Below, piece by piece: positions 5,430-54,591 of a DNA stretch of 64,000 nt. Location of the stretch: assembly GCF_055900595.2 (NCBI RefSeq), contig NZ_CM148325.1. One strand, 5' to 3'. Position numbers and translations under genes: made by a program. Each line of letters begins with the position of its first letter. Positions within the stretch are counted from its first letter, which is position 1. The notes beneath the pieces were generated by a model. The model was not told where the DNA came from. It saw only the letters and a program-made list of their open reading frames with translations, and searched no databases.

Positions 5430-5976
5430 TATGTATTCCCTTGTGATTATAATCTTCATGAATATATCAATAAGTGCCGTTATCCAAAAAAAAGCACATT
5501 TGGATACTATTCTATGAAGTTCATTTTATTTTAAGGATTACATGTAACAAATGTATTTAAAAGATTTCAAAATGTTTCTAATCTATTTAATATAATTCGG
5601 GATTATGAATTCTGAATATAAACATTCATGAATATTATAAATGCATATCAATAAGTTATGAGTTGAGCAGAAAGATAGGGGGTATCAATGATTGTTGCGC
5701 TAAACACCTGGTGTGATCACGCGCACATTAATGAAGGAATAAAAAAAGCCGGCATCATGCCGGCCCCAAAAATATAAACAAGACGATAAAAGGCTAATAA
5801 CGTAAGCATCATGACACAGAATAATAAAAAGGTATAATTGTAATCAGTGCTAATATATTGATTAAATGAATTAATAAAGCCGATATCAAAGATAAATAAA
5901 ATCGCTCAAAACGATTTTTCCTGTATTCACTGCCGTTGCGCAAAAATTATCTATTTGTTCAAAAAATGAGTGAGTC

Positions 5977-14053: not shown

Positions 14054-14332
14054 TTACCAGGATGATTCTCAAAACAGCACAAATAATCAAAGATGATTTT
14101 TTCGGGAGCGATCCCGTTGACGCCAGAGCCACCAAGGGGTGACGCACGTCACATTTCTATTCATAAGTAGCGTTAATCATTCATATCGCGAATATTTTCT
14201 TGTCAGCGAAAAAAATTGCGGATAAGGTGATGAACACATCAGATTTCCTGGTGTAACGAATTTTTTAAGTGCTTCTTGCTTAAGCAAGTTTCATCCCGAC
14301 CCCCTCAGGGTCGGGATTTTTTTATTGTGCAT

Positions 14333-49980: not shown

Positions 49981-50056
<76 letters not shown>

Positions 50057-50110
50057 GTTTAAAAGACATCGGCCTCAAGCGGATGTCTGGCTGAAAGGCC
50101 TGAAGAATTT

Positions 50111-50184
50111 GGCGCGTTAACAAAGCGGTTATGTAGCGGATTGCAAATCCGTCTAGTCCGGTTCGACTCCGGAACGCGCCTCCA
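50111..50184 (+). tRNA. cysT: tRNA-Cys (anticodon GCA)
   Basis: 74-nt GGCGCGTTAACAAAGCGG...GGTTCGACTCCGGAACGCGCCTCCA. Confidence 0.93.
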
Positions 50185-50196
50185 CTTTCTTCCCGA

Positions 50197-50283
50197 GCCC
50201 GGATGGTGGAATCGGTAGACACAAGGGATTTAAAATCCCTCGGCGTTCGCGCTGTGCGGGTTCAAGTCCCGCTCCGGGTACCA
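50197..50283 (+). tRNA. leuZ: tRNA-Leu (anticodon TAA), long variable arm
   Basis: 87-nt GCCCGGATGGTGGAATCGGTAGACAC...GGTTCAAGTCCCGCTCCGGGTACCA. Confidence 0.93.
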
Positions 50284-53382: not shown

Positions 53383-53552
53383 GATAGTGCTCCACAAAGG
53401 TTATATTTGTTGCTGTGGCGTCACTATAATTTGTTATTTTATTATTTGCAAAAGGTAAAATATAAACTTCAATTATTAAAAATACGAATGGGAATAAAAC
53501 GCATTACCGCTATTTCTTTAATCAGCGAAGATCCCCTCGCTGATTAAAATAT

Positions 53553-53876
53553 TTAGAGAAAGACAGGGAAGGCGGAATGATGGCACTGATATGACAAAGT
53601 GAATTCCGTATTCAAACATAAGGAACCCGCAAAAAGGCTACAGTTGCCTACTGGCTGACCAAAGGGGACCGCGTGGGTATAGCCTTCCTGCTGGCATGCG
53701 CGATCGGCGATCCCGCGACTGACATAACGATCGGTATGGGCATGCTGCAAAAAAGCCTGGTCATAAACCAACCGTACAATACCTGTTGCCGCGTCAACTT
53801 CGCTCACATGGGCCTGGCGAGTAACCGTACACCCCGCCAGCGTTATTAATGAAAGAGTCAGAATCAGAAGTCTCAT
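53553..53876 (-). CDS. yecR: Lipoprotein YecR
   Basis: 107-aa ORF with lipobox LAGC. Confidence 0.75.
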   Translation of the reverse strand: MRLLILTLSLITLAGCTVTRQAHVSEVDAATGIVRLVYDQAFLQHAHTDRYVSRGIADRACQQEGYTHAVPFGQPVGNCSLFAGSLCLNTEFTLSYQCHHSAFPVFL

Positions 53877-54138
53877 GGTCCAGCCAGAAGAGTAAGAGAA
53901 AGCACTATTTTACGCGTTACAGCGCTGCGACAATGGCCGGAAAAGACGCCTGGCAGGCGCTATTTCTTGCCATCTGTAGGTGTCAGAAATAGGGGGGCTG
54001 TTTTTTGATTATCATTTTTATAACATTAAAGGAGTATTTATGTGATTTGTATCACATAAAGATTGATTTTTGTGATGGTTGTCATATTATAAGCGCAAAG
54101 ACAATAACACCTGTATAACAAATGGTCGGAGTGCCGCG

Positions 54139-54225
54139 ATGAAACTGCGCAAAATCCTGAAAAGTATGTTCAATAACTATTGCAAGACGTTCAAAGACGT
54201 ACCGCCAGGCAATATGTTCCGATAA
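54139..54225 (+). CDS. azuC: Small protein AzuC (28 aa), within the AzuCR/IsrB dual-function RNA locus
   Basis: ATG AAA CTG CGC...; MKLRKILKSMFNNYCKTFKDVPPGNMFR followed by a terminator; below the 60-aa track threshold and read by hand. Confidence 0.7.
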   Translation: MKLRKILKSMFNNYCKTFKDVPPGNMFR

Positions 54226-54254
54226 TAAAAAACCTGCTCCGGCAGGTTTTTTTG
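54226..54254 (+). terminator. Rho-independent terminator after azuC
   Basis: ACCTGC-TCCG-GCAGGT hairpin followed by TTTTTTT. Confidence 0.8.
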
Positions 54255-54339
54255 TGTCCTGATGACGGTGGATGTGACTATCGCTGAAGATGTGAAGCCG
54301 CTACTATAACGGCTTTCAAAATGCTATCAGGAGTTTACG

Positions 54340-54591
54340 ATGTCCCAGCCGCTGAATGCCGATCAGGAACTGGTTTCTGATGTGGTTGCTTGCCAGTTGG
54401 TTATCAAACAAATTCTGGATGTTCTCGATGTAATCGCGCCCGTTGAAGTTCGTGAAAAAATGTCCAGTCAGCTGAAGAATATCGACTTTACTAACCATCC
54501 CGCCGCCGCAGACCCGGTCACCATGCGGGCAATCCAAAAAGCCATCGCGCTTATTGAACTCAAGTTTACCCCACAGGGTGAATCCCATTAA
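54340..54591 (+). CDS. yecJ: Small protein YecJ
   Basis: 83-aa ORF. Confidence 0.75.

Follow-up and report, generated by a model that had tools for sequence, protein, structure and literature searches.

The closest described system is AzuCR of Escherichia coli K-12 MG1655 (b4663/b4434), an RNA that encodes the small protein AzuC and also acts, as AzuR, by base-pairing with other messages. AzuC is membrane-associated, co-purifies with GlpD and raises its dehydrogenase activity (Raina et al. 2022, PNAS, PMC8915982), probably by promoting the association of GlpD with the membrane (PMC8915982). AzuR represses cadA and galE by direct pairing, as compensatory mutations established; the nucleotides that pair belong to the azuC coding sequence itself, and the targets are contacted near the ribosome binding site in the case of cadA and within the coding sequence in the case of galE (PMC8915982). 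Translation of azuC and pairing by AzuR interfere with each other (PMC8915982). Transcription of azuCR is repressed by CRP when glucose is absent, and translation of AzuC is blocked by the anaerobic small RNA FnrS, which pairs, with Hfq, to the 5' UTR (PMC8915982). The AzuCR RNA co-immunoprecipitates with both Hfq and ProQ (PMC8915982), and a 2025 review gives the same picture of the system (PMC12612679). The literature describes azuC in a restricted set of enteric bacteria.

The window, that is, the whole 64,000-nucleotide stretch of DNA analysed here, is E. coli chromosome. It is as good as certain that the locus considered is E. coli azuCR, an independent transcription unit of about 160 nt with its own promoter, terminator, ribosome binding site and 28-codon AzuC ORF. 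The first-pass annotation had placed at 54100-54256 a 28-codon ORF lying between yecR and yecJ. The ORF is present, with a translation exactly as quoted, and matches to PF13992 and DUF2766 bear out the two neighbours. The ORF does fall inside that interval, but the interval is the span of the whole transcript (54097-54255), the ORF itself being 54139-54225. The features of the locus are these:

53553-53876, minus strand: yecR (lipoprotein), the left and divergent neighbour; a 107-aa ORF matching PF13992 (YecR), E=2.7e-30
54041-54056, no strand: CRP-type operator I, TGTGATTTGTATCACA (TGTGA-N6-TCACA), centred at about -48.5 from the transcription start site (TSS); read directly
54063-54068, plus strand: -35 hexamer TTGATT, from a promoter scan; the TTG is invariant across genera
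54071-54086, no strand: CRP-like operator II, TGTGATGGTTGTCATA (TGTGA-N6-TCATA), overlapping the spacer and the -10; read directly
54085-54090, plus strand: -10 hexamer TATTAT, from a promoter scan; nearly invariant across genera
54097-54255, plus strand: AzuCR (azuR, formerly IS092/IsrB) transcript, 159 nt, mapped from K-12 b4434 through a gapless alignment
54108-54114, plus strand: FnrS pairing site CACCUGU in the 5' UTR; a published site, with the duplex computed here
54128-54131, plus strand: Shine-Dalgarno GGAG, 7 nt 5' of the ATG; read directly, with GG.G invariant and the A nearly so across genera
54139-54225, plus strand: azuC CDS, 28 codons and TAA, translation MKLRKILKSMFNNYCKTFKDVPPGNMFR; from K-12 identity, NF033642 and codon-periodic conservation
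54177-54202, plus strand: candidate stretch of AzuR that would pair across the cadA start codon (UAUUGCAAGACGUUCA against cadA UGAACGUUAUUGCAAUA), from a local duplex scan
54227-54253, plus strand: intrinsic terminator, an 11-bp hairpin (A6-CCTGC / GCAGG-T6) with a TCCG loop and a U-run, from folding
54340-54591, plus strand: yecJ (DUF2766), the right neighbour; an 83-aa ORF matching PF10964, E=3.3e-56

The gene is in practice the same allele as that of K-12, and all of its testable defining features are present. The synteny yecR-azuC-yecJ is that of K-12. The CDS is identical to K-12 b4663 in 87/87 nucleotides and 28/28 residues, with ATG (54139) and TAA (54223-54225) both intact, and the identification as AzuC made from the sequence is thereby upheld, along with the 75.9-bit match to NF033642. 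The alignment with K-12 that had been proposed as a check shows no frameshift and a retained start codon; the 463 bp of the yecR-yecJ intergenic region align without gaps and with four substitutions (53923, 54033, 54226 and 54298), all of them outside the CDS, start codon, Shine-Dalgarno sequence, promoter hexamers, CRP cores and terminator stem. The sole substitution within the transcript is at 54226, directly after the stop codon, where the window has T and K-12 has C, giving a tandem in-frame TAATAA stop in the window. The other three SNPs are intergenic, outside the transcript. No functional difference from K-12 is expected from any of the four, and no result speaks against the identification.

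AzuC and AzuCR were described between 2008 and 2022, are annotated in RefSeq and belong to the E. coli core genome. K-12 MG1655 carries both annotations, the CDS azuC (b4663, 1987873..1987959) and the ncRNA azuR (b4434, 1987843..1988001). The 461-bp region is matched in 5419 of 5426 complete E. coli genomes, several of them with 100% identity, and the RefSeq label beneath the match is ‘azuC: stress response protein AzuC’. The 164-nt transcript is found in 5418 of the 5426, each time with at least 95% identity, which places it in the E. coli core genome. The NCBIfam equivalog NF033642, ‘stress response protein AzuC’, is matched over profile positions 1-26 of 26 with E=1.3e-21, the cut-off for the family being 30 bits; the peptide matches no Pfam family.

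A list of ORFs of at least 20 aa shows azuC not by itself but as the 3' portion of a 48-aa frame opening with TTG (54079..54225), because the ORF tool begins each frame at the earliest start codon that follows a stop; with the default threshold of 60 aa the tool would leave it out altogether. There are 38 ORFs of at least 20 aa overlapping the 2.5 kb around azuC. A 28-codon ORF is thus by itself within chance, and it is the identity as AzuC and the codon-periodic conservation across genera that are beyond it. The peptide has a net charge of +6. Taken as a helix, its hydrophobic moment is 0.61 for residues 2-21 and 0.53 for residues 1-20, the latter a value reached by 71 of 5000 shuffles. Moment and charge are consistent with the published amphipathic, membrane-associated helix.

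The hexamers TTGATT and TATTAT, found by the promoter scan, are separated by a 16-nt spacer and have 9/12 matches, and the annotated TSS follows the end of the -10 by 7 nt. Operator I is a near-perfect CRP palindrome in which GTGA and TC.C never change among the 59 sequences compared, drawn from about 10 genera; in operator II, TTTTTGTGA...GTCATATTAT is nearly invariant across genera. CRP sites have been predicted at the azuCR promoter (Fig. 1A legend) and CRP-mediated repression has been reported (Raina et al. 2022, PMC8915982), which the two predicted sites found here fit. Operator II may act by occluding RNA polymerase.

The ends of the transcript are uncertain by 3-5 nt, the paper and RefSeq differing at both. 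The paper gives a length of 164 nt, a CDS numbered nt 40-126 and a TSS at K-12 position 1988001 (PMC8915982). The 164-nt length would put the 3' end of AzuCR near 54260, against the 159 nt of RefSeq K-12. A TSS at 1988001 puts the ATG at +43, at odds with a CDS of nt 40-126, and the TSS is therefore given here as 54097-54100, uncertain by 3 nt. The annotated 3' end lies 84 nt before the start of yecJ, which is on the same strand.

[quoted passage not shown] In our calculation, nt 1-8 of K-12 FnrS (GCAGGUGA) form a 7-bp duplex of -11.5 kcal/mol with 54107-54115, precisely where the published site lies. In most other genera it reads CACCUGC. The last position of the target is not C in the window, in K-12 or in E. 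albertii (L008, where the site is divergent), and the CACCUGU of the window and K-12 leaves a terminal G-U pair with FnrS; the fully complementary CACCUGC occurs in most other sequences, including four Escherichia loci (L003, L005, L006 and L007). The CCUGC motif of the FnrS site is repeated in the 5' arm of the terminator (AAAACCUGC).

A terminator belonging to the 28-codon ORF had also been claimed, and folding finds it: an 11-bp hairpin and U-run at 54227-54253. The hairpin AAAAAACCTGC-TCCG-GCAGGTTTTTT is present in both the MFE and the centroid fold, and with its U-run reads AAAAAACCTGC-TCCG-GCAGGTTTTTTT. A simple consensus terminator scan did not report it. Across the 59 sequences, 99.8% of the cells of the helix are paired and 7 of the 11 pairs never vary; the stem is almost invariant, and no covariation was found in it among these sequences. 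Read from the alignment in this way, the conservation supports the sequence and not specifically the structure. The whole AzuCR RNA is not unusually structured or stable (z = -1.6).

No Rfam family reaches its gathering score at the locus. The sub-threshold matches are to STnc370, at 34.6 bits (54221-54285, minus strand) and 27.5 bits (54175-54258, plus strand) against a gathering score of 54, and to rsmX, at 23.9 bits against 56; these are mainly matches to the terminator hairpin, the two STnc370 alignments having been inspected. STnc370 was rejected as another RNA gene, the matches on both strands arising from the palindromic A-run, hairpin and T-run of the azuC terminator. Elsewhere in the window are DsrA (14233-14319, plus strand, 102.5 bits), RseX (5741-5830, minus strand, 95.3 bits) and a cluster of tRNA genes, Gly(GCC)-Cys(GCA)-Leu(TAA), at 49981-50283 on the plus strand, an order which we take to be that of glyW-cysT-leuZ in K-12.

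The K-12 mechanism is likely to transfer to the strain of the window, because the CDS and the regulatory elements of the window are identical in sequence to those of K-12. A sigma-70 promoter (TTGATT-16-TATTAT), flanked and overlapped by the two CRP-type operators, would drive an RNA from about 54097 that would end at the strong intrinsic terminator at 54227-54253. The GGAG ribosome binding site would direct translation of AzuC, a +6 amphipathic peptide, whilst the same RNA, as AzuR, would pair with the cadA and galE mRNAs and repress them, pairing competing with translation. CRP would repress the unit without glucose, and FnrS would block AzuC translation anaerobically.

For comparison across species, 80 species loci were fetched with yecJ as the anchor and their flanks were searched for AzuC by tblastn. 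An AzuC ORF lies upstream of yecJ (by about 65-120 bp) in 58 of the 80, and these 58 loci together with the window make up the comparison set of 59 sequences, 54 of them distinct, from about 10 enterobacterial genera. The gene is present in Escherichia, the Citrobacter amalonaticus/sedlakii group, Enterobacter, Lelliottia, Kosakonia, Leclercia, Silvania, Pseudescherichia, Pseudocitrobacter and Huaxiibacter. The ORF has 27-28 codons and is free of frameshifts in 59/59, and the start codon is ATG in 50, GTG in 7 and displaced in 2. Among the 54 distinct sequences, the variable columns at codon positions 1, 2 and 3 number 10, 11 and 26 of 27, respectively, and the pooled pN/pS is 0.16, a pattern that points to strong purifying selection on the peptide. 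The synonymous measure pS is 0.49 for azuC and 0.65 for yecJ in the same genomes, with the deficit concentrated in codons 2-13 (0.38; codons 14-27, 0.58). Near-invariant in the cross-genus alignment (A2) are both CRP cores, the -35, the -10, the GGAG, the 5'-UTR block AATAACACCTGC and the whole terminator.

Seven Enterobacter sequences (L022, L035, L036, L037, L042, L045 and L046) have a GTG start together with AGTTGT in place of the FnrS-pairing CACCTGC (A2 columns 78-125). This combination suggests changed translational control, a regulatory rewiring, in the subgroup. A further Enterobacter sequence, L039, shares the altered FnrS site of these seven but keeps ATG.

Among the 80 loci, azuC was not found upstream of yecJ in Salmonella, C. 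koseri, the C. freundii complex, Buttiauxella or Escherichia sp. MOD1-EC7003. The last of these (L004:1360-1500) has a clean deletion of yecR and of the azuC promoter and CDS, equivalent to 53537-54226 of the window. The deletion stops exactly at the azuC stop codon, leaving a mutated terminator-like hairpin (AAAAAAACTGTTCCGGCTGGTTTTTT) adjoining ftnA. Its left breakpoint is an inverted repeat, AATCAGCGA-N8-TCGCTGATT, which in the window lies at 53500-53550, in the gap that separates the 5' end of ftnA from the 3' end of yecR (two minus-strand genes), and is probably the yecR terminator. In Salmonella enterica subsp. arizonae (L013:695-1333, also L028), a 212-aa ORF with LacAB_rpiB and DUF3666 domains (ribose-5-phosphate isomerase-like) stands between yecR and yecJ, without azuC.

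The first-pass annotation had added that the transcript is reported to act also as an sRNA, and this is indeed published (Raina et al. 2022, PMC8915982). The published pairing with cadA and galE should be retained in the window, since the sequence is identical to that of K-12. A 28-nt local scan places a duplex of -21.9 kcal/mol between 54177-54202 and cadA -7..+19, with an overlapping alternative of -24.2 kcal/mol between 54185-54210 and cadA -15..+10. The former would be a plausible location for the cadA pairing, agreeing as it does with published pairing from within the CDS to a site near the RBS. The local scan gave no convincing location in AzuCR for galE. Shuffled controls (mean best -20.8, sd 2.0) do as well in energy as the best duplexes of AzuCR with cadA and with galE. 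The two codons at which synonymous variation in azuC is greatest, 16 and 17, fall within the candidate cadA-pairing stretch. Whole-length RNAduplex runs of AzuCR against cadA, galE and FnrS were discarded, giving meaningless end-to-end duplexes. Taken by itself, then, the sequence strongly supports the claims of a protein-coding gene and a transcription unit; the sRNA claim comes from the literature, and the sequence argues for it weakly.

As another reading of the locus, one could suppose a non-coding sRNA in which the 28-codon ORF is a chance frame. AzuCR was indeed first described as the candidate sRNA IS092/IsrB (PMC8915982), and short ORFs are as common by chance here as the 38 in 2.5 kb imply. 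Against this stand the 27-28 codons kept without a frameshift in every sequence, the strong excess of third-position variation with its pN/pS of 0.16, the GGAG held invariant at the right spacing, and the published SPA-tagged product and ribosome binding (PMC8915982); this reading is extremely improbable and already refuted in practice. Nor is there much more to be said for a real gene in another frame, whether the 48-aa TTG ORF or an antisense 28-aa ORF at 54087..54173 on the minus strand. Both frames are open in the window, and the antisense frame shares the azuC wobble positions over codons 1-12, where periodicity alone does not exclude it. However, the TTG at 54079 is upstream of the mapped TSS, within the promoter, and the alignment has indels between the -10 and the ATG. 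In other species the antisense frame stays open for anything from 12 to 48 codons before its first stop, and for no more than 16 in 25/59, whilst the periodic signal runs on through codons 13-27, beyond the antisense ORF. Both ORFs were rejected on TSS position, indels and stops in other species, and we would give a gene in either frame almost no chance.

The alternative that RNA is a small-protein mRNA only, the AzuR activity seen on overexpression in K-12 not being a selected function, has more behind it. The predicted cadA and galE duplex energies are indistinguishable from those of shuffled sequence; the third-position entropies of codons 16 and 17, within the candidate cadA-pairing stretch, are 1.80 and 1.93 across genera; pS in codons 14-27 is near that of yecJ; and most of the published repression data come from plasmid overexpression (PMC8915982). 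Nevertheless, compensatory mutations restore repression of both cadA-gfp and galE-gfp, deleting azuCR from the chromosome raises cadA-gfp expression, and the RNA is brought down with Hfq and ProQ (PMC8915982). The reduced pS of codons 2-13 (0.38 against 0.65 for yecJ) is also compatible with some constraint at the RNA level. An mRNA without a selected pairing function is thus improbable, though less so than either of the foregoing readings, and the dual-function azuCR unit is the reading preferred here.

Within the dual-function reading, the two activities need not be of the same age. It is possible, though we hold it only tentatively, that azuC is an older and more widely spread protein gene than has been described, and that AzuR pairing is a recent overlay of the Escherichia lineage. 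The older gene is suggested by the intact ORF, CRP operators, FnrS site and terminator in about 10 genera, and by what would then be losses of azuC in Salmonella, the C. freundii complex, C. koseri, Buttiauxella and one Escherichia species. The recent overlay is suggested by the position of the candidate cadA-pairing nucleotides at the most variable synonymous sites of the gene. The GTG-start Enterobacter subgroup without the FnrS site would extend this overlay to lineage-specific FnrS control.

Biologically, nothing new follows from the presence of azuC in the window. The case does illustrate that ORF tracks with a length threshold miss real, functional small-protein genes and dual-function RNAs, which can be recovered from the sequence. 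The comparative additions are modest: a wider distribution than reported, patchy loss, strong purifying selection at the protein level and scant evidence in the sequences that cadA pairing is conserved outside Escherichia.

SgrS/SgrT of E. coli is, like AzuCR, an sRNA that works by base-pairing and at the same time codes for a small protein, one that acts on carbon metabolism (PMC8915982). SgrS/SgrT keeps its coding region apart from its pairing region, and its two arms serve one pathway (PtsG) (PMC8915982). In AzuCR, by contrast, the two regions overlap and compete, and protein and RNA have different targets (PMC8915982). Spot 42/SpfP of E. coli and VcdRP of Vibrio cholerae are, like AzuCR, CRP-repressed dual-function RNAs of carbon metabolism (PMC12612679), and VcdP resembles AzuC in activating a metabolic enzyme (PMC12612679). 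The targets of Spot 42/SpfP and VcdRP are unrelated to those of AzuCR, and the sequences probably so; the likeness is one of functional analogy only.
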